Shown piece after piece: positions 8,122-63,826 of a stretch of 63,826 nucleotides of DNA. The stretch is from Leucoraja ocellata (Eukaryota). Location: the NCBI GenBank assembly GCA_036785375.1, contig JAWMAR010000022.1, positions 1,302,001 through 1,365,826 on the forward strand. The letters are read 5' to 3'. Within the stretch, counting starts at the first letter, position 1, and the number at the start of each line of letters is the position of its first letter. Below the pieces are notes generated by a model. It was given only the letters and a program-made list of their open reading frames with translations. It was not told where the DNA came from and made no database searches. Both the position numbers and the translations under genes were made by a program.

Positions 8122-8154
8122 TCTATATCTATCCATATACTATTAAACATCTTG

Positions 8155-8205
<51 letters not shown>

Positions 8206-9412
8206 CGCGCATGCGCGCACATGTTATTGTATCTTCGCCAAAATGGTACACAGTAGCGCTGACATTTTTGCAGAAATTTACTCAGCTTTTTTCCGCCGTC
8301 AGTCTTATCAAGTTTCCTACAGATATGATGTTATATTTCACAACTTATTGATATTTAAAGTTTAAAAAAAAGCCAACTTTGATACAAAATAATAGCTGCC
8401 TTTGAGACGGAGACTCTTCAGGCGGCTTCCAGTGATGATGTCACAATGCCATCTCACAGTCCTCCAATCACAATGGGATCTCATTTACACAAGCTGCCGT
8501 GAACATTCCGACAATCGCAAATGACATCACATTGGGACCTCTGCTGCCAATACACAAGCTATGAGAGTTGACGGGATGGGGGATGGGAGGAGAACAAATG
8601 TTATTTAAACATTGTCTTTAGTGGTGAGTGCGAAGGGGAGAGGTGAAGGAGGGAGTAACTGATGGCAGGGAAAAGGAGAGGGAGGGAGAGGTGACAGACA
8701 GACAATTGTATCAGCAGATTCAAGGGGAGTAAGTAAGGAGAGTGAGATTTTTACCCCCCCCCCCCCCCCCCCCCATGTGGGAAGGATTGATAGGGACAGC
8801 GAGAGACTGACAGTTTTGACATCACGATGCCCTACCGGCTACAATGCTTCTATCCCAGAACAGAGTCTTTCACAGCAAATGTCCTTCAGGGAAAGTATCT
8901 GCCAGCCTAACCCAGCACAGCAAAGTTTAATGATTAGATTTGGATAACAAAAGATGTTCCTGTCGGTGGCACCTACATCACATTAAATCTTAGTGCAATT
9001 GCATTCTTTTTCAAGTTTAAAGTTTCAAGAATATTGTGTTAGGGGAACGGGTGTGTAATGGAAACGGGTTGCGTTGGGGAAATGGGTGAGTGGTGGAATA
9101 ATGCGTTGGAGGAACGGGGCCCAATGGGTCAAGGGGGTAGGGAGGGGAGAGGGGTTATGGAGGGTGGGAGGGAGGGACTGAGGATAGGGGAAAGCAGAGG
9201 AAGAGAGAGGTGAGGGAAGGAGTGGAGGGGAGGAGGAGAGGGGAGAGAAGAGGGAGGGTGAAGAGGAGTGGGAGGGAGTGTTGGGGGATGAGGGGAAAGG
9301 AGCCGCGCCTGCGCAGTTGCGGGTTATGGGTGAGTGGTGAAATATTGCGTTGGGGGAACGGGTGAGTGGTGGAATATTGCGTTGGGGAACGGAGCCTAAT
9401 GGGTCCTTCTAG
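8122..9412 (+). mobile_element. Non-autonomous Helitron-like element A1 (train 1), with (TG)n and poly-C tracts
   Basis: 5' TCTATATC...TATACTATTAAAC; 3' degenerate hairpin then CTAG (9409-9412). Shares cgccaaaatggtaca...tagcgc with the element at 62975. Confidence 0.65.
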
Positions 9413-9759
9413 TATCTATATTACTAAATCTCTGTTCTTGACTGCTTTTGGCCATCTGTGCTGTGATTTCCAAGAGATCGCCACCACCTACGGCCGTCAT
9501 TTTTGGCCACCTTGCTCAGAGCCCCCCTCCACCGCATGTGTGCAGAGGATTTTTCCCGTCGGTGAAAAATGACAGATATTAATGTTTTTACAAAAGTTCC
9601 CATTTTCTCTGCTGCCCTTGCTGGCGACAGGGGGGAGGGACCTTAAAACCAGGAAGTGGTGTGCCTCACAGTCTCTTCAAGATGGAGGAAGGCAGAGGGT
9701 CACGTTTCTCTGAGCTGTGAATAACACTGAACACATGTCTACTCAAATGTAAGTGCCCT

Positions 9760-10025
9760 TTGTGGTTCTAAAATGCTTGCAGAATGTGTCTATTGGTTCT
9801 AAAATGTTTGCAAGAAGTGTCTATTGGTTCTAAAATGTTTGCAAAAAGTGTCTCTTTTGGTTCTACAATGCTTGCAAAAAAATGTCTATTGGTTCTAAAG
9901 CTTGCAAAAAAAATGTCTATTGGTTCTAAAGCTTGCATAAAAATGTCTATTGGTTCTAAAATGCTTGCAAAAAGTGTCTCTATTGGTTCTAAAATGCTTG
10001 CAGATAGTATCTCTATTGCTTCTAA
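9760..10025 (+). repeat. Minisatellite, about 30-bp unit tattggttctaaaatgcttgcaaaaagtgtc, about 8 copies
   Basis: Directly visible tandem units inside element A2, followed by a degenerate (TG)-rich tract to 10331. Confidence 0.9.
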
Positions 10026-10331
10026 AGTGTGTGTGCGCGTCGTCTGTCTGTGCGTGCGTATGTATGAGTTGCTGTGTCTGTGTAAGTGTCTGTGGATGAG
10101 TGTGTGAGTGTCTGTGTATGAGTGTGTGTATGTGTGAGTGTCTGTATGTGTGAGTGTTTAACTGTGTCTCTGTGTATGAGTGTCTGTCTGTATGTGTGTC
10201 TGAGTGTGTATCTGCGTGAATGTCTGAGTATCTGTGTGAGTGTGTGTATGTGTCTGTCTGAATGTGTGTACGTGTTTGTGACTATGTGTGTGTCTTTGTG
10301 TTTGTGTGTATTTCTGTGTGAGTGTGTCTGG

Positions 10332-10528
10332 NNNNNNNNNNNNNNNNNNNNNNNNNNNNNNNNNNNNNNNNNNNNNNNNNNNNNNNNNNNNNNNNNNNNN
10401 NNNNNNNNNNNNNNNNNNNNNNNNNNNNNNNNNNNNNNNNNNNNNNNNNNNNNNNNNNNNNNNNNNNNNNNNNNNNNNNNNNNNNNNNNNNNNNNNNNNN
10501 NNNNNNNNNNNNNNNNNNNNNNNNNNNN
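10332..10528. other. Assembly gap (N run)
   Basis: Run of n characters next to low-complexity TG sequence. Confidence 1.
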
Positions 10529-11304
10529 AATTGGCTTGGAGTGCTGTGAGGTTGGACTTGCGGCCTGCACTCCATGATGACTTTTGAGGTAAATTCTCAG
10601 ATTTTCTTTGTTATAATTTGACCGCTTAATCTCTCTATATTAAAATTGTCTTTTTTTTTAAATATCAAGAGGCAGTGAGCAGCAGAACACAGCAAGAGAC
10701 ACAACAAAAAATAACTTAATAAATCTCATCTTTAACGTTTAAATTGGTGTTATATTTTAAGCCATTCACATTTTAAACTTTAATAAATCCTTTTTCCAGT
10801 TGCCATGCCTGCGTGCTCTTCATCACAATAGTAACCTAATAGGCAGGAATGGTTGCGCTGTCGGAGAGCCACTAAGAGTGCATGGGGGGAGATTGAGGAG
10901 GAGATAGACTGAATGTGTGTGGGGGAGGGGAATGGCATGGAGCAGAGTGGGGGGAGAAGGGAAGAGGGGTGACTGAGTGAACTGCCACCACCAGCTGTGA
11001 GTGACTGGGCTGCCAGCCCACCAGCCATGAGTAAGTGAAATGCCAGCCCACCAGCTGTAAGTGACTGAAGTGCCAGTCCACTACCGATGACTTAGTAAAC
11101 TGCAAGTCGAAAAATCCATTCAGTCCACAATGTCCATACTAGCCCTCTGGAAACCAGTCCCTTCAGTGCACAACAGCCTGAGTGACTGAGCTGCCCGGCC
11201 AGAGTGACTGAGCTGCCCGGCCAGAGTGACTGAGGTGGAATATTGTGTTGGGGGACCAGCCCTCCCGTGTGAAGCTGGGACCCAACGTGTCCCACTTAGT
11301 CTTG

Positions 11305-11858
11305 TATTTTACTAAAACTCCCATCTTGTTTGTTTGTGTCATATTTTACAAGTTATTCACATTAACTTTATAGTTAACTTTAGTTTGAGAAAGAATCACT
11401 TGAACACAGCAGTGGCAGTTGAGTGGCAGTTACAGCTATGACGTCACAGGTGTGTGGTGGAATATTGCATTGGGGGAACTGGGCCCAACGGGTCAGAGGG
11501 GTATGGAGGGGAGAGGGGTTACGGAGGGAGGGAACGACTGAGGGTAGGGGAAGGAGATGGCGTGAGAGGTGAGGGAGGGATTGGAAAAGGAGAGGGGAGA
11601 GAAGAGGGAGGGTGAAGAGGAGGGGGAGGGAGTTGGGGATTTGGAGAAATAAGCCGCACCTGCGCAATTGGGGGCTGTGGGTGAGTGGCGGAATATTGCC
11701 TTGGGGGAACGGGTTGCGTTGGGGGAACGGGTGAGTGGTGGAAACGGATTACGTTGGGGAAACGGGTGAGTGGTGGAAACGGATTACGTTGGGGAAACGG
11801 GTGAGTGGTGAAATATTGCGTTGGGGGAACGGGGCTCAACGGGTCCCTCTTGGTCTGG
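11305..11858 (+). mobile_element. Non-autonomous Helitron-like element A3 (train 1)
   Basis: Starts (t)attttactaaaactc; internal gttggggaaacgggtgagtggtgga repeats; 3' ggggctc-aac-gggtccc-tcttggt-CTGG. Confidence 0.65.
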
Positions 11859-12212
11859 TTTCTATTATAAAATTCTGTCGTAACGCTGAGGTCACCTGTA
11901 ACATAATTTCCCTATTATGCATCTCCTAAATATTGAATTTAATGGTCAAATATTTATCAGATCTCAATGATGGGGTCATACAGTGCAAGGAATGGCCCAG
12001 CAATTGGCAATAATCAATTTTACTATTTTGCTGCAGCATTCCGTTGACTTTGGTGCTTGCTGATCTGTAATTGTTGGAAATATTGAAAGATATTCTTGAA
12101 ATTCATCATGTTGATTGCAAGAGGCAATTGTCCACAATGTCCATTAATTTCAAAGTAAACAAAACTTTTGACTCTCAAAGTATAAACAATTCTATAACAT
12201 ACCTGAAAAAGT

Positions 12213-12285
12213 GCCCACTCCCAAGGTCAGGACCAAACACGGGTCTCTAGTGCTGTGAGGTAGTAGCCTACCAGCTGTGCCAGTG
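12213..12285 (-). mobile_element. tRNA-derived V-SINE (HE1-like) head fragment
   Basis: Minus strand ggcacagctggtaggctactacctcacagcactagagacccgtgtttggtcctgacc resembles the elasmobranch HE1 head with degenerate A/B boxes. Confidence 0.6.
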
Positions 12286-12861
12286 CATTGTTTATGTTTC
12301 CACCCAGGGAAAAAGGTTCTTACTGTCTACCCTATCTATGCATCTCATAATTTCCTATACTTCCATCTTGCCTCCCCTCAATCTCCAATATTACAGAGAA
12401 AACAATCTAAGTTTGTCCAACCTCTCCTTATAGAAACATAGAAACATAGAAAATAGGTGCAGGAGTAGGCCATTCGGCCCTTCGAGCCTGCACCGTCATT
12501 CAATATGATCATGGCTGATCGTCCAACTCAGTATCCTGTACCTGCCTTCTCTCCATACCCCCTGATCCCTTTAGCCACAAGGGCCACATCTAACTCCCTC
12601 AATAGCTCATGCTTGCTGACCAAAGTAGTATTCTTGTAAACTTCTTCCGCAAAGTCTTCACATCTTTCCCGTCATAAGGCAACAAAAACTGCACAACAAA
12701 TGCAGCCTAACCAAAGTTTTATAAAGCTGTTATACAACTTCCTGAATCTTATGCTCAATATCTTGAGCATACCATACCCCTTCTTTACCATACTATTTAT
12801 TTTGCCACTTTCACAGATACATAGACATGGATCGCAAGAACTAATGATAAAAGTAAATTAC

Positions 12862-15964: not shown

Positions 15965-18378
15965 TTTGGTAACCCAGACGTCCAGACTAGATATTCTGGA
16001 AGAGAAAATGTGCCCCGCCAGTGCCCAACCCGCCGATGACGACCAGGCTCAACTCAGCGCTGTCGCCATGAAGCTGCCGACCTTATGGACTGAGCAGCCG
16101 CAGGTATGGTTCCATCAGGCCGAATTCTTCGTTCGCAGGGTAACAAATAATGAGACCCGCTACCATTAGCGGTCGGCGCGCTGAAATAATCCCTTTCCTG
16201 CAGGATCCACCGGCGGCCAATAAATATGGCGGCCTGAAGGCACTGCTGCTCCATACCTTCAGCCTCAGTCGGATGGACCGAACGACCCGTATTTACAACA
16301 TGGGTGTGCTCGGCGACTGTAAACCATGGGCCCTAATGAGTGAGATGCTCTCGCACATGGACAGCCACCACTATTGCATGATTTTTGAATATGCCTACAG
16401 CTTCCAGACCGCATCCACCCGCTCCTCGCAGGGGTAAGTTTAGAAAACCCCTGGGCTCTAGCGGAGCGTGCTGACGAACTGTGGTTGTCCCATCGGCAGG
16501 AAGCGGGCCAGCTGGATCGAGTGTCCACAGTGCCCAGGATGGCACAGTGGCCTAGACCCATGCCCATCAGGAGCTCCGCGGAGCATCTGGAGCCTGCCCT
16601 TAATGGGGAAGTCCTTAAAGGGGAAGTTCTTAAAGGGGAGTGATGCTTTTACCACCAGCGTTGGGGCTCGACAGCCCCCCCAATGCCGCCCACCCTGTGC
16701 GTTTCTGGGAAACGCTAGGGACGGCTGCCGGCAATCACTGCAGCGGTCGGCAACGTTCATCGCCTTTACCTCTGGGGGCGAAAGAGGCGTTGGCTCGGGT
16801 GGCGATGCTGGTACATCTGCGGATCAACGCCCCCAGAGCACTAACTGTGGAGGCCTCGGACTCTGCGGTTGGTGGTGTATTGGAACAGTTTGTAGACAGT
16901 CACTGGTGGCCTCTCGCCTTTTTCAGCTGCCAACTTAACCCGGCGGAGCATAAATACAGCTTGTTCAACCGGGAACTGATCGCTTTATATCTGGCAGTTA
17001 AGCATTTCCGTTATTTCCTGGAGGGCCAGAACTTTGTTGCGTTTACTGACCATAAGCCCCTCACCTTCACCTTCGCCAAGGTGGCTGACTCTTGGTCCGC
17101 TCGGTAGCAGTGCCACCTCATCGCTATCTCCGAGTTCACGACGGGCATCCGCCACATCACCGGGAAAAATAACTTGGTCATGGACGCCTTGTCCCGCTCG
17201 GCTGTTAAGGCCGTTCTCGACATGTCCCCGGTAATCGATTACTCAGCTTTAGCGGCGGCGCAGCTAGCAGACGAGGAGATGAGGGCGTACCGAACTGCCA
17301 TCACAGGACTGGTGCTCGAGGATGTGCCTTTGCGTTCCACTGGCATCACCGTCGTGTGTGACATCTCCACGGGGCAGCCGTGGCCTATTGTTCTGGTGAC
17401 CTGTTGTCGTTGGGTTTTCAACGCCATTCATGGTTTGGCCACCCATCCATCCGGGCAACAGTGGCGTTGGTTGCTGCAATATTCGTATGGCATGGATTGC
17501 GGAAGCAGTTCGGTCATTGGGCCTGGACGGGCATTCCCTGTCAAACATCTAAGGTTCAGCGGCACGTCTGGGCGCCAGTTCAAGACTTTGCGGTGCTTCG
17601 CCGGTGTTTCAAACATGTCCACATGGATATCGTGGGGCTGCTACCTCCGTCCCGCGGTATTTCACACTTGCTTACGGTGGTGGACTGTTTCACCCGGTGG
17701 CCGGAGGTCATCCTGCTTGTCGACACCTTAGCCCTGTCCTGCGTGTGTGCCCTGGTGGCCTATTGTGTTGCCCATTTCGGGGTACCGCTGGACATCTCAT
17801 CCGAACGAGGTGCCCAATTCACGTCGGAGCTGTGATCAGCAATGGCTCGCCTGTTGGGGGCTCAGCTCCACCACTCGACAGCATATCACCCCCAGTCGAA
17901 TGGGTTGATGGAACATTTCCACCGCCGGCTTAAGGACGCTTTGAAGGCTCGCCTCACCGGTCCCGGTTGGATGGACGAGTTGCCGTGGATCCTGCTGGAG
18001 ATTTGCACGGCCCCAAAGGAGGACTTGCAGGCTTCATTGGCGAGTTGGTTTACGGCATTCCATTAATCGTGCCTGGAGTGATTATCCCAACCGCTGGTGA
18101 CCCCCAGGAGTCGCCATCATCCATGTTGGTCCGACCGCGGGAGAAGGTCGGCGCCCTGTCTCCTGTCCCAACATCGCGGCATGGTGTTGCTCTATCTCAC
18201 GTGCCTCTGGCTCTTGCGGACTGTCAGTATGTCTTCTTTTTCGGGTGCTACAGCATGGGCTCACGATTTTTGAATTGGACATGGGGGGTTCGGGGGGGAG
18301 ACTGAGTCGGTGTCTCGTTTGAAGCTGGCCCATTTGGACCCGAGTAAGCCAGTCCAGGTGACCCAACCTCGCCGTCAA

Positions 18379-20328
18379 TAATAATAATAATAATAATAAT
18401 AATTTTATTTATAGAGCACTTTAAAAACAAACATAGCTGCAACAAAGTGCTGTACATCACTAATCATTGACAAAAAAGTTAATACACACCAAAAATAACA
18501 ATCAAAAGAAATAGTAGGAAAAGACATGTAAAATAAAGAAACATCAAAAACACCACAAACAGAAACAAAGCCTCAGGCATGGTCAAAAGCCAGGGAGTAC
18601 AAATGCGTTTTAACACTGGATTTGAAGATGGACAGTGAGGGGGCCTGTCTGATGTGCAGCGGCAGGGTGTTCCAGAGTGCCGGAGCAGCAACAGAGAAGG
18701 CTCTATCCCCTCTGAGCCTCCGACTAGACCTCGGTACCTCCAGGAGCAGCTGACCAGCTGACCTGAGGGACTGGGCAGGAGTGTATGGGTGGAGCAGCTC
18801 AGAGAGGTAAGGCGGGGCGAGCCCATTCAGAGATTTAAAAACAAATAACAGTAACTTAAAATGAACCTGAAAGTGCACCGGGAGCCAGTGTAGGGAGGCC
18901 AGAATTGGCGATATGTGCTCCCTCTTTCGAGTCCCTGTTAAAAGGCGAGCAGCAGCATTCTGAACCAACTGGAGACGAGCCAGTGAAGAACGAGCAACAC
19001 CAAAATAGAGCGCGTTACAGTAATCCAGCCTAGATGTAATAAAGGCATGGATTACTGTCTCAAAATGCTGCCGCTCGAGAATGGGCTTCACCTTCGCCAG
19101 CTTCCTTAGGTGAAAGAAGCTGGACTTAACCACCGCGCATATTTGGCGATCTAATTTAAAGTCACTGTCCATCCTAAAACCCAGGTTCACAACTGTTGGC
19201 TTCACGTACCTTGACAATGGACCTAAATCAACAAATGGAGGTTCACGGCAGCCATTGGGATCAAATAAAATCACCTCTGTCTTCTTTTCATTAAATCCAA
19301 GAAAGTTTAGGGCCAACCAGGACTTAATGTCATCAAAACAAGACAGAAGCGATTTTACAGAAAAGGCATCTTCCCCCCTCAGCGGCAAATAAAGCTGGGT
19401 ATCATCTGCATAACAGTGGAAGGAGATGCCATGCTTTCTAAGGATGGAACCCAGAGGAAGTATGTACAGCGAGAAAAGCAGGGGCCCCAGAATCGAACCC
19501 TGTGGAACCCCATATGACAGGGGAGCGGAAGAGGATTCAAACCCAGCAAGGCTAACACACATGGTTCTGCCCGCCAGATAGGACCTGAACCATCCCAGGG
19601 CACTGTCGCAGATGCCCACTAACTGCTGTAGCCGAGATAATAAGATATTATGGTCCACCGTATCAAAGGCGGCAGACAAGTCCAGCAGGACAAGAACCAC
19701 ACAATCCCCAGAATCATTAGCCAGGAGGATATCGTTAAAAACCCTTAGCAATGCTGACTCCGTGCTGTGCATGGTTTTAAATCCAGACTGGAAGATCTCC
19801 CGAATATCATGCTCCTCCAGGAATAGTTTTAGCTGAGCATAAACAACTCTCTCCAGTAATTTAGAAATAAAAGGCAATTTCGAGATGGGTCTAAAATTGG
19901 CCAGAACAGATTGATCCAGGCCAGGTTTCTTAAGTAGTGGTTGCACTACCGCATGCTTAAAACTCACGGGGACAACCCCAGAACACAAGCTGCTGTTAAT
20001 AATGGTAAGAACCGACTGCCCTATACTAGAGAAAACCTCCTTAAAAAGATGTGGAGGGACCGCATCACAAGGAGAACCCGATGGCTTAATATGGGAAACC
20101 ACATCCTTTAAATACGATATAGTCACAGGCTCAAACTTGTTGAATACCACCAGGCAAGGGACCGAAACAGAAGGGTCAGAGGCAGGTGCTGAAATGTTAG
20201 CCCTTAAGGAAACAACCTTATCAACAAAAAAGTGCAGGAAGTCATTACACATTTCAGGTGAAGCTTCCAGACAGACAGGCTGCGGGGCATTTAGAACAGA
20301 GTCAATGATTTCAAATAGCACACGAGGG
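18379..20328 (-). mobile_element. 5'-truncated L2-clade LINE nested in the Gypsy element
   Basis: TSD CGTCAA at 18373-18378 and 20329-20334; 3' tail gtacagcactttg...gtgctctataaataaaa(TTA)n. Confidence 0.93.
18573..20321 (-). CDS. L2 LINE reverse transcriptase ORF (582 aa, no stops, N-terminally truncated)
   Basis: NFRPISKLPF, LLDLSAAFDTVDH, GVPQGSILGPLLF, HCYADDTQLY, SRLDYCN, LQLVQNAAARLL, LHWLPV. Confidence 0.92.
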   Translation of the reverse strand: MLFEIIDSVLNAPQPVCLEASPEMCNDFLHFFVDKVVSLRANISAPASDPSVSVPCLVVFNKFEPVTISYLKDVVSHIKPSGSPCDAVPPHLFKEVFSSIGQSVLTIINSSLCSGVVPVSFKHAVVQPLLKKPGLDQSVLANFRPISKLPFISKLLERVVYAQLKLFLEEHDIREIFQSGFKTMHSTESALLRVFNDILLANDSGDCVVLVLLDLSAAFDTVDHNILLSRLQQLVGICDSALGWFRSYLAGRTMCVSLAGFESSSAPLSYGVPQGSILGPLLFSLYILPLGSILRKHGISFHCYADDTQLYLPLRGEDAFSVKSLLSCFDDIKSWLALNFLGFNEKKTEVILFDPNGCREPPFVDLGPLSRYVKPTVVNLGFRMDSDFKLDRQICAVVKSSFFHLRKLAKVKPILERQHFETVIHAFITSRLDYCNALYFGVARSSLARLQLVQNAAARLLTGTRKREHISPILASLHWLPVHFQVHFKLLLFVFKSLNGLAPPYLSELLHPYTPAQSLRSAGQLLLEVPRSSRRLRGDRAFSVAAPALWNTLPLHIRQAPSLSIFKSSVKTHLYSLAFDHA

Positions 20329-20486
20329 CGTCAAGGGCGTCCGCCGTCTCGTGCCCCATCTAGTTCGTCCTTACCAGAAAATAAACCTTTACGTGGGGAT
20401 GTACGTACGAGGTCCGGCCGCCTCGTTTGGCTGCCCGTCCGTTTTTGTGCCTCCTGTTCTGGGAGGGGGCGGGGGGGGGTAGGTAA

Positions 20487-35630: not shown

Positions 35631-36117
35631 TTCTATCAACATCTTCAATCAATATCACAGGCAGATTAACTGATCATTATTACATGGGAGCTTGTGAGAC
35701 CTAGCTATTTGCAACACTGCAGCACTTTGATACAAAATGCTTCCTTGAAAGATATAATTTTAATAATGTGGTGGTTTTTCAATTCCTGTACTTGATGTCA
35801 AGAACATTTAGTCGGGAGTTGGGTTCCTGAAGCCAAAATCTGGTAACTCTTATCAAAATGTTAATTGGAAATTAGTCCACAATGTTCTGTTTTAAAACGT
35901 ACTAAATTTCATTTTTAAAAAGATCATCATTGTAAAATTACAGAAAACTAAATGATAATCTAAGGATTAAGAACACAATATATATAGATATGAAAGGCTG
36001 TTCATTCATAAAAGGATTAATTTACATTATATAGGCAGGATTTGGTAAATTATTTTAGTATTATGACATGTTAATTTAGTGTCCAATTATTTATAATCAG
36101 GCAAGTACAATGAAAAT

Positions 36118-36335
36118 AGACAAAATGCTGGAGTAACTCAGCATCTCTGGAGAGAAAGAATGGGTGACATTTCGGGTTGAGACCCTTCTTCAGTCGGACG
36201 GTCTGAAGAAGGGTCTCTACCAGAAACTTCACCCATTCCTTCTCTCCAGAGATGCTGCCTGTCCTGCTGAGTTACTCCAACATTTTGTGTCTATCTTCGG
36301 TTTAAATCAGCATCTGCAGCTCCTTCCTACACATT
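36118..36335. mobile_element. Palindromic Penelope terminal-repeat-only element with two opposed hammerhead-like cores
   Basis: Inverted arms centred near 36197; 15-bp TSD AAGTACAATGAAAAT at 36103-36117 and 36336-36350. Confidence 0.85.
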
Positions 36336-40949: not shown

Positions 40950-41810
40950 CAATCACCAGGAACATGGAGCAGCAACCTCGTTACCGTTTGTAATGTCCCA
41001 TTGCCATGTCATTGTGGTAGTCGGCAGCTTGAGAGCCCAATGTGATTGGTGCAGTGTGAGTGGCATTGTGACATCATCACTGGAAGCTCCTAGAAATGAG
41101 CTGTCAGTGAGAAGGCGGCTTTGGCTTTTTTTTAAACTTTAATCATGAATAACCTTTGAAATATAGCATGAAATCTGAATTGAGCCCGATTACGGCGTGG
41201 AGGGGAATCAGAAGTTGAGGAGCAGCCCCTTCTGATATTAGTGCAGTGGCAGCAACCTAGTTACCATTGGCAATGCCCCATTGTGATGTCATTTGTAAAT
41301 GAGATCCATTGATTGGACGTTTGTGAGATGGCATGGTGACATCATCACTGGAAGGTGCTGCAAGAGTCTGCCACTAAAAACCCGTTAATTATTTTTCAAA
41401 TTTGGCTATTTTTAAAAACTTTAATCATTAATAACTTTTAAAATCTTGCATGAAATCTCAAGTGAAGCAGAGTATGGTGTGGGACTAAAATGCAACCAGA
41501 ACTTGAGGAGCAGCCCCTTCAAATATTGGTAGAGGGGCTGTAACCTCATTACCGTTGGCAACGACCCATTGTGATGTAATTGTGGCAGTTGGCAGCCAGC
41601 TTGAGAGTCCATTGTTACCGTTGGCAATGTCCCATTGCGATGTCATAGTGGCAGTCGACAGCCAACTTGAGAGTCCATTGTGATTGGTGCACCGTGAGAG
41701 GCATTGTGACATCAACACTGCGAGAAGGCTGGAAGCTGTCTGTGAGAAGGCAGTTTTGGCTGTTTTTAAAATTTCAATGATTAATAACTTCTGAAATATA
41801 TGTGGAAAGG
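40950..41810 (-). repeat. Internally repetitive element related to Helitron-like A1, about 280-300-bp unit x3 with about 60-bp subrepeats
   Basis: gtgacatcatcactggaag and aaatgagatccattgattgga are reverse complements of motifs at 8425-8490; gttaccgttggcaatgtcccattgtgatgtcattgtggcag recurs. Termini not recognisable. Confidence 0.6.
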
Positions 41811-42854
41811 CGACGGGAAGATGTTTATCGTCACAATGTGAAAAATGTAAGTAGGATGTGCGGAAATGGGAAGGCTGTGGCCTAGCATTTGGAAGAAGAT
41901 AGAAAAACCAGATTGACACATCGTGGGCACAAACAAGATGAAGACTTTTACTTATATAGAGATGGGATAGGGACAAAAATTGGGTCACTGATGGCCTGAT
42001 CCCAAACAAGTTAACAGGGAAAGAGGTGTGGAACTGGTTAGATCAGGGCAGATGAACAGAGAGTGCAGCAGGTGGGTTTCATGAATGAGATCAGCTCTGC
42101 TGGCGATGTGAATCCTGGCCTAGGAAGAAGGGGTGGAGCCTGTAGCAGTAGCAGCATTGAACATTTTAAATTTTAGAAAGAGAAAAGGTAATAATTTTGA
42201 ACTGGATGAGGCAAATCACCTTGCTCCATCACACTTACCAAATTCTAGAGTCATTTGTAATTGGAGTCGTATAGCATGGAAACAGGTCCCAAGGCCCAAC
42301 TCATCCATGCCGACTGAGATGCCCCAGCTCAGCTTGTCCCATTTGCCTGCGTTTAGTCCAGATGCCTCAAAACCTTTCCTATCCAAGCACCTATCCAAAT
42401 GTATTTTATGTATTCAGAGAGTCATACAGCATGGAAACAGGACCTTCGGCCCAACTTGTCCACGTCAACCAACATGCCTCATCTGCCTGCATTTGGCCCA
42501 TGTTCTCTAAACCTATCCTATCCTTGTACCCATTCAAATTTTATTATTACACCTGCCTTGACGACTTTCTCTCCACAGATATCCCTCCTGGGATAAATAC
42601 ATTTCTATTGTATCGTACTGCCTGACTGACTGAATATATCCAGTATTTTAGAATGAAGAAAAATCTAACCCGACTATCCTTTTGGAATTTCAGTACAAGT
42701 TCTCAATTGAAAAGTCAATTCCGTCCACTCGTATCAGGTTTCTCAGCCAGGAATCTTTTAGCAGATTGAGCTGCCATCAAAGTGCTCTTTTCCCTACCAC
42801 CAGGTTGAGATAACAAGGATGGCTTGGAATACCCTTATAATGATACAGCCTGAA

Positions 42855-51489: not shown

Positions 51490-54400
51490 GGTGCATTTAA
51501 ACTAAATAGCGGAGGGGTCGGTTGACAAATTGGGAGTATAAGGATGAAGTTAAAAGGGAAGAGAGTACAGGAAAAGTTACGAAAGACACCACAATTAATG
51601 GGACGGAAAGTTCAAGAAGGGATAAGAGGGTAAGGTTAGGTGAAATAGGAACCAGTGTGAGAGGCGAGGTGTATTCCAAATTAAAAGTGTTATATATGAA
51701 TTTGCAAAGTATAAGAAATAAAGTGGATGAGCTTGAGACTCTGTTAGAAATTGGTAAGTATGATGTTGTGGGAATTACAGAGACATGCCTGCAAGAGCTG
51801 GGAACTGAATATTCATGGGTATACGTCCTTTCAAAAAGACAGATAGGTGGGCAGAGGGGGTGGGGTAGCTCTGTTGCTAAAGAATGAAATTCAGTCCCTT
51901 GCGAGGGGTGATAGAAAATCAGAATATGTAGATAGATGTGGATAGAACTGAGAAATTGTAAGAGTAAAAATACCCTAATGGGAGTTATCTACAGGCCCCA
52001 AAACAGTAGCCTGGATAGAGGGTGCAAGTTGCATCAGGAGTTAAAATTGTCATGTAACAAACGTAATGTTACGGTGGTTATGGGAGATTTCAACATGCAG
52101 GTAGACCGGGATAATAAGGTTTAATCAAATAATATTGTACTGGACCAAAGAAAGGGACTTTGCGAGGTGCCTCCGAGATGGATTCTTAGAGCAGCTTGTA
52201 CTGGAGCCTACCAGGGAGAAGGCAATTCTGGATTTAGTGTTGTGCAATGAACTGGATTTGATAAGGGAACTTAACGTAAAGGAACTATTAGGAGGTAGTG
52301 ACCATAATATGACAAGTTTTAATCTGCAATTTGAGAGGGAGAAGGTAAAATTGAAAGTGTCAGTATTGCAGTTGAACAAAGGAGACTATGGTGCCACGGG
52401 GGAGGAGCTGGACAAAGTTGACCAGAAAGGGACCCTAGCATGGATGACGGTGGCTGACAGGTATTTCTGGGAATAATCCGGAAGATGCAGGTTCATTTAA
52501 TTCAAAAAAGGAAGAAAGATTCTTTTGTTGTTGTTGTTTTTTTTATTAGAAGTTAATACAGCACAAAACAGTACAGTGGAACCTAATTTTAGGTGCCAAC
52601 TATGTAATACCGTAATCCATTCTATGTACAACCTCTAGTTTTATGTTATGAGAAGGAAGTAAGCAAGACAAGAAAAAGAAAACAATAGAAAGAGGAAAAA
52701 GTGGATAAATAGATGGTAGAGAGTAGAAAAACGTGAAGTGTGTATATAAAAAATAAAAAAGGAAGAGAGAAAGTGGAAAGTAGAAATAGAAGAGAAGGCC
52801 CCTTAAAAGAGAATTTTTCAAATCTGTATTCGGAGATGTAGATCTATCCGCGTCATGAACTGAAATCGGCAATCTTTACGGTACCGCTGCATCACATGAT
52901 TCCAAAAAGTCGATGAAAGGAGACCAACTACTTAAGAATTGGTCATATTTATCTATTAGTCGGAGTCTCATTTCTTCAAGGCGTGCTATGTCCATCATAT
53001 TCCTAATCCACATTTTAACAGTTGGTATGGTTGTATTTTTCCAAAATTTAAGTATCAATTTCTTTCCAATTATTAACCCATAATTAAAAAAAACATTTTG
53101 ATCTTTATTTAAATTGGTATCTTCTCCTATTATTCCAAATATAATCCATTCCGTTTTGGGTTCTATTCTTGACTTGAAAAGCTTTGTAAATATATCAAAT
53201 ATATCACTCCAAAATGTATTCAACTTTGTACATCCTACAAATGAATGTGTTATATTAGCGTTTTGAAACAAACATTTATCGCATCTGGGAGAGACGTTTG
53301 GATAAAATTTATTCAACCTCGTTTTTGAATAATATAGTCTATGTAATAATTTGAATTGAATTCAATTATGTCTTGCATTAATAGAACAGTTATGTGTATT
53401 CATCAAATACTTTTCCCATCTATCCTTCGAGATCTTTATCATTAGCTCATGTTCCCAATCTTCCCTTAATGCTTCTGTTGAGGGTGATTCTCTATTTAAT
53501 ATATTATTATAAAAGTATATTAATTTTTGTGAATCAGCCTTAATATTCATTGCTTCTTCTAAAGGATCTAAAAATAGTTTGAAATCTATGTGTATATTTC
53601 TTCATAAAGTCACATGCCTGTATATATTTAAAATATTGATTATCCTTCAATTTAAATTTAAATTTTAATTGTTGAAATGATAACAGTTTGCCCACTTCAT
53701 ATATATCCCCTACTTTCCTAATCCCCAGTCTATCCCATTGTTGATATGTGTTGTCGATGAGAGAAGGTTTGAATGCGGGGTTGTTCAATAGTGGGGTTAG
53801 TACTGATAAATTATTTAATTTCAAGGATACTTTTATTTGTTTCCAAATTCTTATTATATTGTGAATAATTGGGTTCTTCTTATATATTATACTATTCAAT
53901 TTTATCGGTGAGAGCAGGATCGTTCCTATATCGTGCGGATAGCACTCCTCTTTCTCCATTCTTATCCACTCCAACTGCTGAGTGGAACTATCCAGCCAGT
54001 ACATTATGTTCTTAATATGCACTGCCCAGTAGTAATACATAAAGTTAGGTAATGATAAACCCCCAACTTCTTTAGATTTGCACAAATGCTTTTGTTGAAT
54101 TCTATGTGTTCTGTAGTCCCATATAAAATTAGTGATAGTGGAATCTAGTTTTTTGAAAAAATATTTTGGAATATATATTGGGATCGCTTGAAACAAATAT
54201 ATTAATTGTGGTAAGTCATTTTTATAGCGTTAATTCTACCTATCAATGAGAGCGGAAGCGTTTTCCAAAATTTAATCGTATCATTCAGTTTATTTAATAG
54301 TGGCATAAAATTGGCACTAAATAATGATTTGTGTCTTCTCGTAATTTGAATACACAGATACTTGAATTTTTCTGTTGCAATTTCGAAGGGGAATTTCAGT

Positions 54401-56476
54401 GTCTCGAATCCTGTGGTTTTAAAGACATAATTTCGCTTTTATTCCAATTTATTCTATATCCTGAAAAAGAGCCAAATTCCTCAATTAGTGTTAATAAGGT
54501 GGGTATACTCGTTTGTGTATTAGTAATATATAAAAGGATATCATCAGCATATAATGAAATTTTATTCTTTGAGTCCTTGCTGTTATATCCGTGAATATTC
54601 GGGTGATTTCTAATCCTTTCGGCCAGCGGTTCTATCATAAGGGCAAATAGCAATGGTGATAAGGCACACCCTTGCCTATTACCCCTTGATAAGTAAAATT
54701 TTGGAGATAGCGTATTGTTAGTTAATCTTCTTGCCGTAGGTCTATCGTAAAGTAGTTTAATCCATCTAATAAAATTCTCTCCCGTATTAAATTTTTGGAG
54801 TACCTTGTATAAATACTGCCATTCTACTTGATCAAATGCCTTCTCTGCATCCAGCGTGACAACTGAAATATCTTCATTGTCCTCATTATGAGAGTACATT
54901 ATATTAAAAAGCCTTCTCAAATTATTAAATGATTGTCTTTTGGGTATAAATCCCGTTTGATTCGTATTTATTAAATTGTTAATATAATTATTTAGCCTTC
55001 TAGCTAGAATCTTTGCTAAAATTTTCTGATCCGTATTTAGAAGTGAAATAGCTCTATAAGAACCCGGTTCATCTAAATCTTTATCTTTTTTTGGTATAAG
55101 CGTTATTGTTGCTTCTGCTAGGGTTTCTGGTAGTTTATTTTCAGTATAAGCCTGCATGTATAAATTGAATAATCTTGATACGATTGACTCCTGAAATCTT
55201 TTATAAAATTCATTACTAAAACCGTCTGGTCTTCCCATTTTTCAGTGAGTTTATTATTTGTTTTATTTCTTCACTAGTAATCCGTGTTCCTAATTGCTCT
55301 TGTTCTAAACTATCCAATTTTGGGAGCTTGCAATTATCTAAAGAAATTTGTAATTTTACTTACATCTGTCTTTATTTTAGATGTATATAAATTATGATAA
55401 AATTGGGCAAACCTCTTATTAATATCCTTAGGCAATGTTAGAAACTCACCCTTATCCGATTTAATTTTAGTAATAGTTTTTTCCTTTTCTCGTTGCTTCA
55501 GTTGCCTCGCAAGTAGTTTATGAGGCTTATCCCCAAATTCGAAGTGTGCTTGTTTTGTAATTTGGAATAATCTTATTACTCTAGCCGATAGTATTCTATT
55601 GACTTTATATTTCAATAAGGTTATCTTATTATGTTTATTTATGGTTGGGTCGGTTGCATTGTCCAGTTCTAGTAATTTTATTTTCTGTTCTATCCGCTGA
55701 AGTTCTCTTTTATTTTCCTTATTTTGAAAACTTTGGTAAGAGATTATGACACCGCGAATATATGCCTTGAAGGTTTCCCATAATAGTGGTGCAGAAATAC
55801 CCGGCTTGTCATTTATTTCGAAAAAAAGTTTTGTTTGTTCTTTTATATACTCATAACCCTGCGGGTTATTTAATATGTGTGCATTGAACCTCCAAAAAGG
55901 TTTTATACTCGGCATTCCCTCAATTTTAAGTATAAAAGTCCATGGTGAGTGATCAGAAATAATACTATTATGATATGATGGTTTATTCGTATACGGGATC
56001 AATTTTGTGTCCAATAAGAAATAGTCAATTTGCGAATAAGTTTTGTGAACTGATGAATAAAATGAGTATTCCCTACCACTTGGATTTGCTATTCTCCAAA
56101 CATCAGCTATGTTATTATTTTTTATATAAGTATTTAAAAATTCACAGGTCTTAGTTTTAACAAGACGCTTCCCTAGCTTTATTGATTTATCTAAGTATGG
56201 GTCTATAACACAGTTGAAATCTCCCCCCATTATTATATTTTGAAAATTATGCTCTGCGATTAAATCTATTATTTTCCTAAAAAATTGAGGGTTATCAAAA
56301 TTAGGCGCGTAAATATTTATCATAGTTAATGGTGTATTGTAAATTTCTCCCGTGACTATAACATATCTTCCCTCAGGAAGAAAGATTCTAAGGGGAGTAA
56401 GAGGTGACCAGGCTGACAAGGGAAGTCAAGGACAATATAAAAATAAAAGAGAAAACGTATAACATAGCAAAGATGA
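51490..56476 (+). mobile_element. CR1 5'/endonuclease region (51490-52523 and 56375-56476) split by L1
   Basis: LKVLYMNLQSIRNKVDEL...VVGITET, GVIYRPQN, MGDFNM, LGGSDHNM. Confidence 0.88.
52524..56374 (-). mobile_element. L1-clade LINE, 5'-truncated ORF2 (EN, RT, Cys-rich C-terminus), frameshifted, AT-rich
   Basis: INIYAPN, GGDFNCV, SQIDYF, ISDHSP; YRAISLLNTDQKILAK, LDAEKAFD, GNRQGCALSPLLF, LYADD; CDKC...HSFVGC; A-rich tail; 15-bp TSD AGGAAGAAAGATTCT at 52509-52523 and 56375-56389. Confidence 0.95.
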
Positions 56477-57505: not shown

Positions 57506-59563
57506 ATAGAATAAGAATAGTTTCTTTATTGTCATTGTAACATGAACCATGTACAACAAAATTTAAAAATGTCAGCCAGTCAGTGCACCATTCAAACATT
57601 TCTAAAAGCTAACGATACATACAAGGTAAAATATTAAAAAAGATAAACAACTAAAATAAATATCATGAAAATAGCACGCATAAACACCCAATCCCACATC
57701 CTTCTGTCGATTTCACAAAGTACCACAGTCCCTTAGTATTGGGCGGCTACATTTAGTGCCTTTATAGCAGTGGGGTAAACTGTTTTTAAGTCTGTTTGTC
57801 CTTGTCCTTGTAGATCTGTACAGTCTGCCCGACGGCAACAGTTCAAACAGGGAGTGGGAAATGTCCTTTATAATACTCTGGGATTTTTTGATGCAGCGGG
57901 AACTGTGTAAGTCCTCCAAGGTAAGGAGATGGCAGCCGACAATCCTCTGGGCGTTGTCAATGGCCCTCTGGAGCACTTTCCTCTGAGCCGCTGTGCAGCT
58001 GGTGTACCATGCGCATACACAGTATGTTAGGATGCTCTCAATGGAGCACCGATAAAAGGACAGCAGCAGTCTCTGATTGATGTTATTCTTCCTGAGCACC
58101 CTCAGGAAGTGCAGTCTCTGCTGGACCTTTTTCAGCAGCGCAGAGGTGTTCACGCTCCATGTCAGGTCCTCCTCAATATGGATTCCCAGGAAGCGGAAAT
58201 CCGCCACCCTCTCCATACAGTTGGTACAATGTCCGTTTTATTCTTCCTGAAGTCTATTATTATTTCCTTTGTCTTTAAGGTGTTGAGGAGCAGGTTATTT
58301 TTTCCATACCACACTGTCAGCTGCTCCGCCTCATCCCGGTAGGCGTACTCGTCCCCCCCGGAGACGAGTCCCACCACCGTAGTGTCATCCGCAAATTTGA
58401 CAATGCTGTTGCTGTGGTGGGCGGGGGTGCAGTCATGTGTGTAGATGGTGTAGAGCAGGGGGCTCAGTACGCAGCCCTGTGGAGAGCCGGTACTGAGGCC
58501 GAGGACCGTGGATGTGTGATGGCCCACTCTGACTCTCTGGCTGCGACCCGACAGGAAGCTATTTATCCACATGCAGGTGGAGTGTGGAAGTCCCAAGTCC
58601 CCCAGTTTGTCCACCAGTTTGTGGGGAAGGATGGTATTAAAAGCAGAGCTGTAGTCCACAAAGAGCATCCGCACGTAGCTCCCCCGCTGCTCCAGGTGGG
58701 ACAGTGCAGCATGGAGAGCTGTGCCTACAGCGTCCTCTGTAGATCTATTCACTCTGTACGCAAACTGGTGGGGGTCAAAGCTTCGGGGCAGGAGTGATGT
58801 GATATGACCCCGGACCAGTTTTTCAAAACACTTCATCACCACTGGTGTGAGTGCGACTGGCCGGTAGTTGTTGAGGCTGGAGATGTTGTTTTTTTTGGGC
58901 AAGGGGACTATGGTTGAGGACTTCAGACAGGGTGGAACAGTGGACTGGGCCAGAGACTGGTTGAAAATCCTCGTACAGACTCCAGCCAGCTGGTCTGCGC
59001 AGTCCTTCAACACGCGTCCAGATACGCCGTCCGGACCAGTGGCCTTCCTTGGATTGATGGCCCGCAGCGTGCGCCTCACCTCATGCTCCTCTATCTTGAG
59101 GGTTAGGCTGCTGTGGACCATGTGGTGTGATGTGGCTGTCTCGGGTGGCTCCACTTCAAAGCGAGCAAAGAAGAGATTCAGCTCCTCTGCCAACGAGGCG
59201 TCACCTTCAGCAGCTCCAAGGTTGGTCTTGTAGTTGGTGAGATACTGGATCCCCTGCCACACCTGCCTGCTGTTGTTACTGTCCAGGTGGTCCTCTATCT
59301 TCCTCCTGTAGTCTGATTTGGCCTCTCTGATGCCTCTCTTCAGGTTAGCTCGGGCCGTGCTGTATAAAGCCCTATCGCCAGACCTAAAAGCGGTGTTCCT
59401 CTCTTTTAACAGCCGCTGGACCTCCCGGGTCATCCAGGGCTTCTGGTTGGGGTAGACCCGGATGCGTTTGTCCACTGTGACAGTGTCCATGCAGTTTTTA
59501 ATGTAACAGTACACTGTCTGTGAACACCTCCAGGTCCCGGTGTTCAAACACATCCCAGTTGGT
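57506..59563 (-). mobile_element. 5'-truncated Rex1/Babar LINE nested in the Penelope element
   Basis: ORF 58162..59553 with [52 protein letters not shown]; short-repeat tail; TSD CTTCAGA at 57499-57505 and 59564-59570. Confidence 0.94.
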
Positions 59564-59670
59564 CTTCAGACAGCCCTTGCTTTCTCGCTCCATCCCCTTC
59601 CCAGTTCTCCCACTAGTCTCACTGTCTCCAACTACATTCTATATTTGTCCCGCCCCCTCCCCTGATATCA

Positions 59671-60394: not shown

Positions 60395-60924
60395 CTGTCA
60401 TCCAAATATATAGATTATTCTAAATGGGTACAGATTCTTTCAAAATAAACTTTACTGTATATTTAAACACATAACTAGACAGACTGATACACAAAATACA
60501 AGCAATGTAAATAATTTATTCATACAGCTTAAAAACTGGCCCTTCGCTCGCAAGACTCTGTGTCTACCATCAACATTAATTCTACCCAAATCCAAGTTCT
60601 TCATCCACCTCCCCAATTCTCAGAACCAAACCCCGAGAATATTATTCATCTGAAAAACGCCCATTTGCGAACATTGCAAAAACCTAGCTTTGCAATACAG
60701 CAGCTTATTGTTGCACTTTCAGCAGTCCATACCTGATAAGAAATATCTTTAGCATCCTTTCCCCAATTAAGCCTCACATGTCAAAATTAAATTATATTTG
60801 CCATTCCTTGGCCCACCTTCCCACATGATCAGGATCTTCATATAAATTTAGATAATCCATCCTCGGCATCTGTTGTACCACCAATGTTAACTGCAAGATC
60901 TATCTATCTACATCTATATATATA

Positions 60925-61788
60925 TCTATATTACTAAAAGTCTGATCTTGACCGCTTTTGGCCCATTGTGGCGCAATTTCCGAGAGAACGCCGTCACCTA
61001 CGGCCGTCATTTTTGGCCACCTCCCTCAGAGCCCCCCTCCGCCTTCCAGGACCAGAGGATTTTTCCCATCGATGAAATATGAGAGAGATATTAATGTTTT
61101 TACAAAATTCCGCATTCTCTCTGCTGCCCCCGCTGGCAGCAGGGGGAGGAACTATAAAACCCGGAAGTGTCGTGCCTCACTCAGTCTCTGCCAGACCCAG
61201 GAAGCGAGAGGTTCACGGCTGTCTGAGCTACGAATAACACTGAACACACGTCTACTCCACGGTGAGTCCCCTCGATGCAGCTGTAAAGTGGCTGTAGCCC
61301 TTTTTAAAAAGTTTGTGTTCACAGAATGAGTTTTGGCTGTCAGGTGGCTGCAGCCCAAATGTTTGCCTCGCCTTTTGAACAAGTTTGTGTTCACAGAATG
61401 ACTTTTGGTTGTCGGGTGGCTGCAGCCCAATTTTTTTGCCACGCATTTTTAACAAGTTTGTGTTCACAAAATGAATTTTGGTTGTCAGGTGGCTGCAGCC
61501 CAATTGTTTGCCTCGCCTTGGCTTTTAAAATCATTGCAACAGTTGGCTGCCAGCCCAAGAATCCATTCGGGCCACAATGTCTATACTTGCCCTCTGGAAA
61601 CCAGTACCTTCGGCCCACAACACCCATACTAGCACAACAGACAGCCCCCCCCCCCCCCCCCCCCCCCCCCCCACCCGCCCCCGCCGCCACTGGCGAGCAA
61701 TATTGGAATTGGTGGAGAGGTGGAATGTTGCGTTGGTGATCAGCCCTCTCATGTGATGCTGGGACCCAACGGGTCCCACATAGTCTAG
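60925..61788 (+). mobile_element. Non-autonomous Helitron-like element B1 (train 2), with an internal about 72-bp tandem repeat x3 (61309-61520)
   Basis: A|TCTATATTACTAAAA start; perfect hairpin TGGGACCC-AAC-GGGTCCCA at 61760-61778; CTAG at 61785-61788 then T; no TIR or TSD. Confidence 0.8.
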
Positions 61789-62974
61789 TCTATCTATCTA
61801 TCTATATTTAAAACTCTGGCTACCGCCTGCCTGCCGGCTACCTGACGGCCGGCTTTCTGCCTTTGATTCGTTGCTACGCTGACACCAGACGCAAAATTGC
61901 CGAGATTTTTTCCATTTCGGTAGAAATGTTACTTTTCATTCCAAGTATCCACTCCCGATTAAATTTCGTCGTATTTATGTACACATTTTAAATAAAATCC
62001 ATCTCCCCCCCCCCCCCAGATGGACTGTCCCTACCCCTCCCCCTTCCACTCTCCCTCCCCACTATTTCCCCTCTCCCTCTCCCTCCACACTCTTCCCCCT
62101 CCCTCCCCTACCCCATCTCCCTCCTCCCCCCTCCCCACACCTCTCCCCCTCCCCCATCCATCCCTCTCTCCCTCTCTCCATCCCTCTCTCCCCGTCCCCA
62201 TCCCTCTCTCCTCCCCTTCTCCATCTCCCTCTCCTCACCACTCTACTCCTCCCCCTCCTCCTCCTCTCACCCCATCACTCTCTCGCCCACCCCCCTTCCC
62301 TCTCCCCTTCCTCTCTCCTCCACCCTTCTTCCCCCACCCCTTTCCCTCTCCCCACACTCTTCCCCCTCTACCATCTACCCCATCTCCTCGCCTCCCTCCC
62401 CCTCACCTCTCCCCACCCCCTCCCCATCCCTCTCCTCCCCCTCCCCTCCCCATCCCTCTCCTCCCCCCTCTCCCTACCCCTCTGTCCCTCTTCCACCACT
62501 CCCCCTTACCCCACCCCTCTCCCTCCCCCACACCACACTCCCCCTCCCTCCCCTACCCCTTCCCCCTCTGTCCCTCTTCCATCACTCCCCCTACCCCTCT
62601 CCCCCTCCCTCCCAACTCTTCCACTTCTCTCCCCCCCTCCCCCTCCCCTATCCCTCCCCACTCTTTCCCCTCTCTCCCTCACCCCTCTCCCCCTCCCTCC
62701 CACCCCCACACCTCTCTCCCCATCCCCCCTCTCTCACCCCATACCCCGCTCTCCTTTCCCTCACAAATCTCTCCCGTTTCCTCCTACTCCTCTCCCCTCT
62801 TCTCATACTCCCCTCTCCCCACCCCGTCTCCTTCTCCCCCCCTACCCCCACCTGTGTGTTTGGGGGGTGGTTAGTGTGGGTGTGATGCCGCTGCCCCCCA
62901 CCCCCCCCCCCCCCCACCCACCCCCCGCAAACGCCGTTGGGGAAACAGACCCAACGGGTCTGCACTTGGTCTGG
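61789..62974 (+). mobile_element. Non-autonomous Helitron-like element B2 with an about 850-bp pyrimidine-rich tract
   Basis: (TCTA)n-TATTTAAAACTCTG start; hairpin CAGACCC-AAC-GGGTCTG at 62946-62962; CTGG at 62971-62974. Confidence 0.75.
62005..62852 (+). repeat. C/T-rich low-complexity tract
   Basis: Almost only C and T with scattered A; produces the spurious proline-rich ORF. Confidence 0.95.
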
Positions 62975-63760
62975 TAATTACTAAAACTCTTGTCTTGTTT
63001 GGACGTCTGTCTGTCTGCGTGTGTGCGTGTGATCTCAAGGAACTACGCCAAAATGGTACAGAATAGCGCAAAAATGTTTGCACCACCTCACTAACCTTTG
63101 TCCCGTGGTCATTCCTATATAGTTTTGAACACATTGATGTTATATTTCACAAGAAATTTTACATTTTTAAACTTAAAGTCAACATTTTAGAAAAATAGCT
63201 TCACCCTCCGGCTATATCTACAGCTATAACTTCACAACGCTCCATTGTTCGAATCTGGGCACAGTCAGTCCTGTCAGGCTGCCAGCACAAGAAATTTTAC
63301 ATTTTTCAAACTCAGCTATGACCACAATGCTACATTGTTGCAATCTCGGCACACTCAGTCCAGCCTGGCTGCCAGCACTACAAAGTGCTGTTGCTATCAT
63401 TTTTTCTTTATTCCTGGCAGCATGGATGCCAGCATTTTCTAGTGCTGTTGCTATTCCCTTTTTTTTAAATTCCTGGCAGCATGGAGCGAGGGTGTCCAGT
63501 AAAAGTCACAGTACACTGAATTTTGAATAAGGCGAACTGAGCAGCCCTCGCACAGTTGGGGGCTATGGGTGAATGGTGGAATATTACGTTGGGTGGAACG
63601 GGTTGCGTTGGGGAAACGGGTGAGTGGTGAAATATTGCCTTGGGGAACGGGTTGCGTTGAGGACTAGGCCTCCTGTGGGGCTATGGGTGAATGGTATAAT
63701 ATTGCATTGGGGGACCAGGTCTCTGTGTGAAAGGGATCCAATGGATCCCAGTTGATCTAG
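62975..63760 (+). mobile_element. Non-autonomous Helitron-like element B3
   Basis: taattactaaaactcttg start; hairpin GGGATCC-AAT-GGATCCC at 63733-63749; CTAG at 63757-63760. Confidence 0.75.
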
Positions 63761-63762
63761 TA

Positions 63763-63826
63763 TCTATATACTTTTAAAACTCTGTATGTGTGTGGGTGTA
63801 CGGGATTTTGCCTTTGAAACGCATCT
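63763..63826 (+). mobile_element. Start of a fourth Helitron-like element B4 (runs off the window)
   Basis: TA|TCTATATACTTTTAAAACTCTG follows the CTAG of B3 directly; gattttgcctttga resembles ctttctgcctttga in B2. Confidence 0.6.

Follow-up and report, generated by a model that had tools for sequence, protein, structure and literature searches.

How a Helitron chooses and joins its target is the least understood step of its cycle, and the available text of the sources cited here gives one rule for it, insertion at A^T in an AT-rich context. Helraiser favours AT-rich DNA, chiefly 3′ of the insertion, and its logo shows an AT-rich preference within ~20 bp (PMC4778049). Canonical Helitrons (HLE1) are described as having a CTRR 3′ end with a 16–20-nt hairpin 10–15 nt from that end, and HLE2 elements (Helitron2/Helentron) as defined by short (asymmetric) terminal inverted repeats and T^T insertion (PMC11417382, PMC13286980). 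The head-to-tail arrangement of Helitrons is already known as isolated cases. A maize pair of different Helitrons is joined as CTAG-TC, for which insertion at the A^T formed by a host A and the first T of the resident was proposed (PMC2267711), and maize Helitrons inserting near other Helitrons are also on record (via PMC3288121). In fungi, one FoHeli4 sits 2 bp ahead of where another begins at its 5′ end, and three Helitron copies stand in tandem in Metarhizium (PMC5148889). Multiple termini have been ascribed to self-insertion or nesting (PMC13342296, PMC3288121). Repeated targeting is therefore not a new idea, having been proposed for maize (PMC2267711) and reported in fungi (PMC5148889); what is added here is recurrence, the offsets of the junctions and a target rule. 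The available text of PMC12001565, PMC4224331 and bioRxiv 2024.11.21.624632 holds no mixed Helitron stacks, and a full-text literature search, with subscription journals and repeat-database reports mostly outside its scope, returned no titles on Helitron stacks of cartilaginous fishes or on target mimicry.

We analysed a window of 63,826 nt from the skate Leucoraja ocellata (GCA_036785375.1, contig JAWMAR010000022.1, positions 1,302,001–1,365,826). At its right end lie three complete Helitrons and the start of a fourth, all on the + strand and abutting, as the initial annotation described. Unit A (60,925–61,788), a non-autonomous Helitron, starts with TCTATATTACTAAAA, carries an internal 72-nt repeat in three copies and ends with the hairpin GGGACCC-AAC-GGGTCCC (61,761–61,777), 7 nt and CTAG. 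Unit B (61,789–62,974) begins with three TCTA units (61,789–61,800) ahead of its own start TCTATATTTAAAAC at 61,801 and closes with CAGACCC-AAC-GGGTCTG (62,946–62,962), 8 nt and CTGG, a terminus that reads CTAG in ~99% of the depth in public sequencing runs. Unit C (62,975–63,760) ends with GGGATCC-AAT-GGATCCC (63,733–63,749), 7 nt and CTAG; it opens with TAATTACTAAAA and has no TC, so that the TCTATA..TAAAA-type start claimed for every unit does not extend to C. TA and the start of unit D (TCTATATACTTTTAAAACTCTG from 63,763) occupy 63,761–63,826 and run off the window end. Between the units are 0–12 nt of TA/TCTA and otherwise no host DNA. Position 60,925 stands as the start of unit A but not as that of the block, which is headed by a TCTA/TA run from 60,899 to 60,924 (+); judged by its sequence, this run may consist of leftover 5′ bases, slippage or a target microsatellite.

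The ends follow the scheme of hairpin, 7–8 nt and CTRG in all of A, B and C, and the hairpins differ in sequence while keeping perfect pairing, with 7-bp stems and 3-nt loops. A, B and C are unalignable and share matches of merely 11–23 nt, which bears out the mostly unrelated interiors noted initially. The main-stack units are, however, not independent designs, as BLAST finds terminal and subterminal modules in common with the units of a second stack. Unit C is a mosaic: its 5′ module and its subterminal repeat module are abundant, and the middle between them is near single-copy. The interior of unit B contains ~700 nt of degenerate C/T-rich repeat (62,029–62,733), G-rich on the other strand.

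The second stack (8,132–11,858, units a, b and c), overlooked in the initial annotation, was revealed by BLAST of the block against the window. It lies on the + strand behind a TCTA/TA-like run (8,118–8,131). Unit a (8,132–9,412) has a C/D-like 5′ part, a decayed hairpin and CTAG. Unit b (9,413–11,304) belongs to the A family, matching unit A at 80.6% over 351 nt at the 5′ end and at 85% at the 3′ end; it begins with TA and TCTATATTAC (from 9,415), ends with a one-mismatch hairpin and CTTG, and contains an assembly gap of 197 N (10,332–10,528). Unit c (11,305–11,858) starts with TATTTTACTAAAA, again without TC, and ends with a decayed hairpin and CTGG. Behind it, at 11,859–11,882 (+), is a 5′-like motif (5′ profile E 8.7) with no recognisable element following; the stretch 11,859–12,430 gives matches of only 13–15 nt to other window units, and the motif is either a decayed unit or a 5′-end-like host target. 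Units a (9,085–9,130) and c (11,451–11,494) also contain internal half-ends, comprising the subterminal repeat and most of the hairpin but no CTRG, which precede a purine-rich tract and then a second full end; we read them as a trace of end duplication or bypass. A solitary related element e (40,960–41,962, − strand), likewise recovered by BLAST, starts as A followed by TCTCTATATAAGTAAAAG and has no recognisable 3′ end.

A profile built from six ends recovered exactly six complete 3′ ends in the window, plus the two half-ends without CTRG, and a profile from A, B and C alone recovered b (E 7e-12), c (E 0.0075) and, weakly, a (E 6.8). The T..TAAA motif stands behind all six complete ends and a real unit behind five of them. 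The order of units is not fixed, since the A-family unit leads the main stack and comes second in the 8.1–11.9 kb stack, there before a C-like unit. Oriented A^T sites in the window number 10,264, and resident 5′ ends eight; random A^T insertion at one of these eight has p ~0.004, and for the pair of real junctions in the second stack, which lie outside the original finding, the chance is ~1.5e-5.

Several other repeats occur in the window. On the − strand are a 585-aa reverse transcriptase frame (18,573–20,330; Pfam RVT_1), a nearly complete L1-like ORF2 in pieces (53,540–56,425) and a further reverse transcriptase frame (58,162–59,565). The named matches of the L1 protein are bony fishes (44–63% for the top named), with no cartilaginous fish among the 120 matches listed. 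An LTR-type RNase H/integrase remnant (16,634–17,835, +) was recognised by eye, and a 187-nt imperfect inverted repeat (36,112–36,298, 77%) consists of two short interspersed repeats in opposite orientation. We take the short repeats in the window to resemble shark and ray SINEs.

A search pattern that specified the 3′ end only, leaving the 5′ end free, matched three metagenome loci (L001–L003) and one locus in a prokaryote genome set (L004), with no match in viral contigs. All three metagenome ends run on into a D-like 5′ end, and BLAST of these loci against the window gave no match. L003 and L002 overlap by 88 nt, so the three loci are probably two sites; together L003 and L002 probably form one mixed stack, terminated by a free end of another hairpin type. 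L001 (1–1,588) has identical 111-nt ends and one exact CTAG-TC junction and has the appearance of a 1,477-nt non-autonomous Helitron present as a circle or as a collapsed tandem. L004 is a solitary A-TC...CTAG-T element whose 5′ end differs from the start of unit D by one mismatch in 22 nt. It lies in the tail of contig C38, where the 3′ profile finds four ends, one of them stacked. This contig (G001:C38, L007–L024; 353 kb), filed as a Bacteroidia genome, is ~90% coding in its first 220 kb and switches near 221–232 kb to eukaryote-like DNA with little coding, LINEs, a P-element-like transposase and Helitrons; either the assembly is chimeric here or bacterial DNA has become part of a host chromosome. 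A Helitron within a bacterial genome was dropped as a reading of L004, all copies lying in the eukaryote-like tail.

The termini place these units with the canonical Helitrons, as initially proposed. A, B and C combine a 3′ CTRR with a subterminal hairpin of 17 nt that stops 11–12 nt short of the element end. In an alignment of hairpins from ten ends (five in the window, five at other loci), 91.4% of cells are paired; two of seven stem pairs carry changes on both sides, and the covariation score was attained by none of 500 shuffles, in a test that relatedness alone can inflate. Folded singly, the ends give z-scores from −0.09 to −2.87, modest values that on their own count for little. Rfam gave no match in the window, and the hairpins thus belong to no known RNA family. 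The 5′ TC is present in A, B, D, a, b and e and missing in C and c, where we read it as lost at the junction, although decay could also account for it. T follows all 13 tabulated 3′ ends, and A precedes the stack head at 60,899, element e and the solitary L004 copy, as in insertion at A^T without target duplication. Copies with the same termini and different flanks are dispersed, namely the A-family copy at 9,413 and free B-type ends in run contigs. Among the 19 repeat-finder pairs listed, none joins unit ends by a terminal inverted repeat. Assignment to HLE2 was rejected on the same absence of an inverted repeat and on the TC/CTRR ends and A^T flanks.

Nine assembled junctions could be compared. 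Two are exact CTAG-TC (G-TC) joins (A-B and L001), two lie 2 nt upstream of the downstream TC (C-D and a-b), and in the remaining five the downstream TC is absent (B-C, b-c, L002, L003 and C38 333784); one of the five junctions within the window is exact. Seven of the nine are thus off the exact form and are not circle-type joins. A rolling-circle tandem array of near-identical units with exact CTAG-TC was likewise rejected, given one exact junction in five and the unalignable A, B and C. The first TCTA of the downstream unit is missing at some of the junctions. In all four runs compared, a B-type end is joined to a D-type start (62,974 to 63,767, minus TA and TCTA; offset +4), and this joint, at about single-copy depth, may be one shared locus. 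Contig C38 offers a direct comparison: the family start TCTATATACTTATAAAA occurs at two solitary copies, and the stacked copy opens TATACTTATAAAA / TATACTTATAAAAC, cut at TCTA^T, which places the upstream copy at TCTA^T inside the resident start. Extra TCTA units also precede a solitary C38 copy, and we therefore abandoned the idea that the TCTA runs at the stack heads record earlier insertions.

Copy depth was compared over 62,927–63,826 (900 of the block's 2,902 bases) in 4 of 24 listed public runs, those with small word shares being left out; the runs are assembled contigs, and depth serves as a rough contrast only. The end bins of unit B reach depths of 336,090–1,462,921, and the middle of unit C (63,197–63,316) has 0–107, with long contigs of three runs matching the interior of C at 98–99.5% and low depth. 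The middle of C is thus near single-copy and the end of B thousands of times deeper, so B-C-D has not spread as a block. In run X1, a mutated end (CGAG) before a D-type start reaches a depth of 565, or about tenfold single copy, pointing to amplification of some composite. Free B-type ends were found in at least 53 contigs of X1 and at least 64 of X18, continuing for ~250 nt into diverse AT-rich DNA with flank agreements of 0.38 and 0.49, respectively. The 5′ motif follows every complete end in the window (6/6) and the pattern-matched ends of the metagenome loci (3/3); free ends are common in the runs, and on C38 three of the four profile-found ends are free.

The free flanks hint at what is recognised. 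The loose-end consensus of X18, with agreement 0.49, has TAAAA at +8, a position noted there before C38 was examined. On C38, TAAA stands at +8 behind two of three free profile-found ends, or three of four counting one end seen by eye. The background frequency is 1.1% of A^T sites, which gives a chance of 5e-6 for 3/4 and, by hand, ~3e-4 for 2/3, this background not being matched for local AT richness. The free flanks at C38 320395 and behind the second end in L002 lack the motif. The target motif is thus drawn from 3–4 free flanks and one low-agreement consensus.

The best account of the stacks, at a probability of roughly 65%, is in our view that elements inserted one after another into the 5′ ends of residents, driven by a preference for a target that the 5′ end itself matches. 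The initial suggestion of repeated targeting of pre-existing ends fits best in this form, which refines the target to the resident 5′ end and puts the newcomer upstream; the adaptive ‘safe harbour’ also envisaged there would be a further, conjectural step. The junction offsets and the single orientation are those predicted for A^T insertion around a resident start, and they favour serial insertion; counting against it, free 3′ ends are common and just one of the four profile-found C38 ends is stacked. A RepHel supplied in trans is known to copy a Helitron unit, beginning at the 5′ TC and stopping at the hairpin and CTRR, and to place the copy between an A and a T with no duplication. The units would be non-autonomous Helitrons of one lineage, a newcomer entering an A^T that coincides with the 5′ end of a resident or lies a few bases from it. 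To judge from the few sites at hand, the lineage appears to prefer A^T with TAAA at about +8. Its own start (TCTA^TATAC..TAAAA) would fit this preferred target at several A^T steps, and because the element start matches the target, each insertion would create a good target for the next. Stacks would then extend to the left, always in the same orientation, and the order of subfamilies would be random. A newcomer would cut off the first TCTA of the downstream unit, a loss that would probably leave the resident unable to initiate transposition; in Helraiser the left end as a whole is essential (PMC4778049). Secondarily, read-through of a mutated internal end would be likely to move a composite occasionally.

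That stacks arose rarely and then spread as units, by transposase bypass of internal 3′ ends, is improbable, and for this block the composite trains moving as a unit that had been envisaged initially are disfavoured. The order of subfamilies differs between the two stacks, as the initial annotation had proposed to check, and the middle of C stands at 0–107 against 336,090–1,462,921 for the end of B. B-type ends join C-type as well as D-type starts, and the origin of the first precise junctions would be left unexplained. Composites can nevertheless arise, as the mutated junction at about tenfold depth in X1 indicates; end bypass has been shown for Helraiser (PMC4778049), maize Helitrons with multiple termini and damaged internal CTAG are described as common (PMC3288121), some internal ends here are mutated (CTGG, CTTG), and units a and c contain half-ends. 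A generic preference for A^T wherever the DNA is AT-rich or a TA/TCTA microsatellite, free of position-specific mimicry, would account for the TCTA/TA runs at both stack heads and before B and for free flanks that are AT-rich with low agreement, in line with the AT-rich ~20 bp of the Helraiser logo (PMC4778049). It is quite improbable all the same, as no microsatellite lies at B-C or b-c, every junction has the same orientation although A^T is symmetric, the window holds 10,264 oriented A^T sites from which to choose, and TAAA keeps a fixed +8 in most free C38 flanks.

Integration in one piece, of rolling-circle concatemers or of circles joined in trans, is very unlikely. Such joining predicts exact junctions (PMC4778049, PMC5876387), whereas seven of nine here are not exact G-TC, the offsets −2 and +4 recur, and A, B and C do not align; that the block is not one rolling-circle concatemer, as the initial annotation held, is upheld on these grounds. 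Helraiser does yield precise CTAG-TC junctions, with tandem arrays reported in plants and bats, and in one assay about half of its circles had aberrant junctions (PMC5876387); L001, with its exact junction and identical 111-nt ends, is of the kind expected. We find it scarcely credible that a junction is instead the single end structure of another element (e.g. a Helentron/HLE2 or TIR element) or an assembly artefact. Hairpin-CTAG and T..TAAA do occur nearly always together in the window, and the second stack spans an N gap. The two motifs are nonetheless found apart, at opposite ends of solitary elements (L004, C38), and the existence of such solitary A-TC...CTAG-T copies contradicts a single end structure; the repeat finder pairs no unit ends by terminal inverted repeat, and contigs of three runs match the middle of C at 98–99.5%.

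An autonomous RepHel element with the same ends, as initially called for, was not found in the window; a RepHel remnant is present in L002, in the upstream unit, which has the same 3′ end. Among longer proteins this fragment has one hit, P0001 (51% over 121 aa, E 6.8e-24), which comes from the skate Rhinoraja longicauda, is 1,614 aa long and contains Helitron_like_N and PIF1 domains. It was the protein search that identified the fragment as RepHel; in Pfam so short a piece gave only a HipA hit below cut-off. The cluster of P0001 has 11 members at ≥90% identity in one skate, several of them full length, which suggests a recent family in a vertebrate outside bats. Among the matches listed, its relatives are Leucoraja (77–79%), Physella (72% and 67%) and unnamed records (65–69%), the remaining ones being at 55% or less (other Helitrons 41–55%); no relatives were found in viral contigs or in G001. 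In a tree that sampled 25 of the 120 proteins listed, the eight closest proteins (within the set P0001–P0018) group as a clade with support 100/100. This clade of skates (Rhinoraja, Leucoraja) and the freshwater snail Physella hints at horizontal transfer. The tie between the skate RepHel and the window units is indirect and would run through similarity to the L002 end.

These findings lead to a wider, tentative proposal, which we hold as somewhat doubtful: a lineage common to skates and distant invertebrates may read its target by its own left-end code and so target itself, stack and decapitate residents. Decapitation would here amount to insertion four bases inside the resident start, a step we regard as equally conjectural. 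If true, the proposal implies that Helitron integration is guided by sequence and that non-autonomous families compete directly. Should the target mimic the left end, a single rule would cover head-to-tail pairs, multiple 5′ termini and Helitrons near Helitrons, and the predicted polarity of a stack would have the youngest unit at the left. Mixed stacks also provide the internal ends that give rise to mosaic subfamilies, and in repeat libraries they lead to misleading, fused consensus sequences.

The units described here share with Helibat1/Helraiser (HLE1) the 5′ TC (seen in A, B, D, a, b and e), a hairpin ~11 nt from CTRR, A^T insertion without duplication and AT-rich DNA 3′ of the site (PMC4778049, PMC11417382). 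They differ from Helraiser-type elements in that different subfamilies are frequently stacked on the same strand and in that the junctions deviate from the exact circle form; the Helraiser features described in the available text of the same sources include no position-specific target motif. The skate and snail RepHel clade of P0001 provides the best match of the remnant inside an element that shares the 3′ end (L002). The FoHeli cases have Helitron2-type ends and are single cases, mostly within one family, with no target-mimicry rule in the available text (PMC5148889, PMC13342296). Tandem arrays in plants, bats and Hydractinia subtelomeres are likewise head-to-tail Helitron runs, but of one subfamily and ascribed to rolling-circle concatemers (PMC5876387, bioRxiv 2024.11.21.624632), whereas the units here differ. 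The maize pair is a single case with an exact junction and, as described, unresolved order (PMC2267711); in contrast, the stacks reported here recur with 3–4 or more units in several genomes, often cutting into the resident start.
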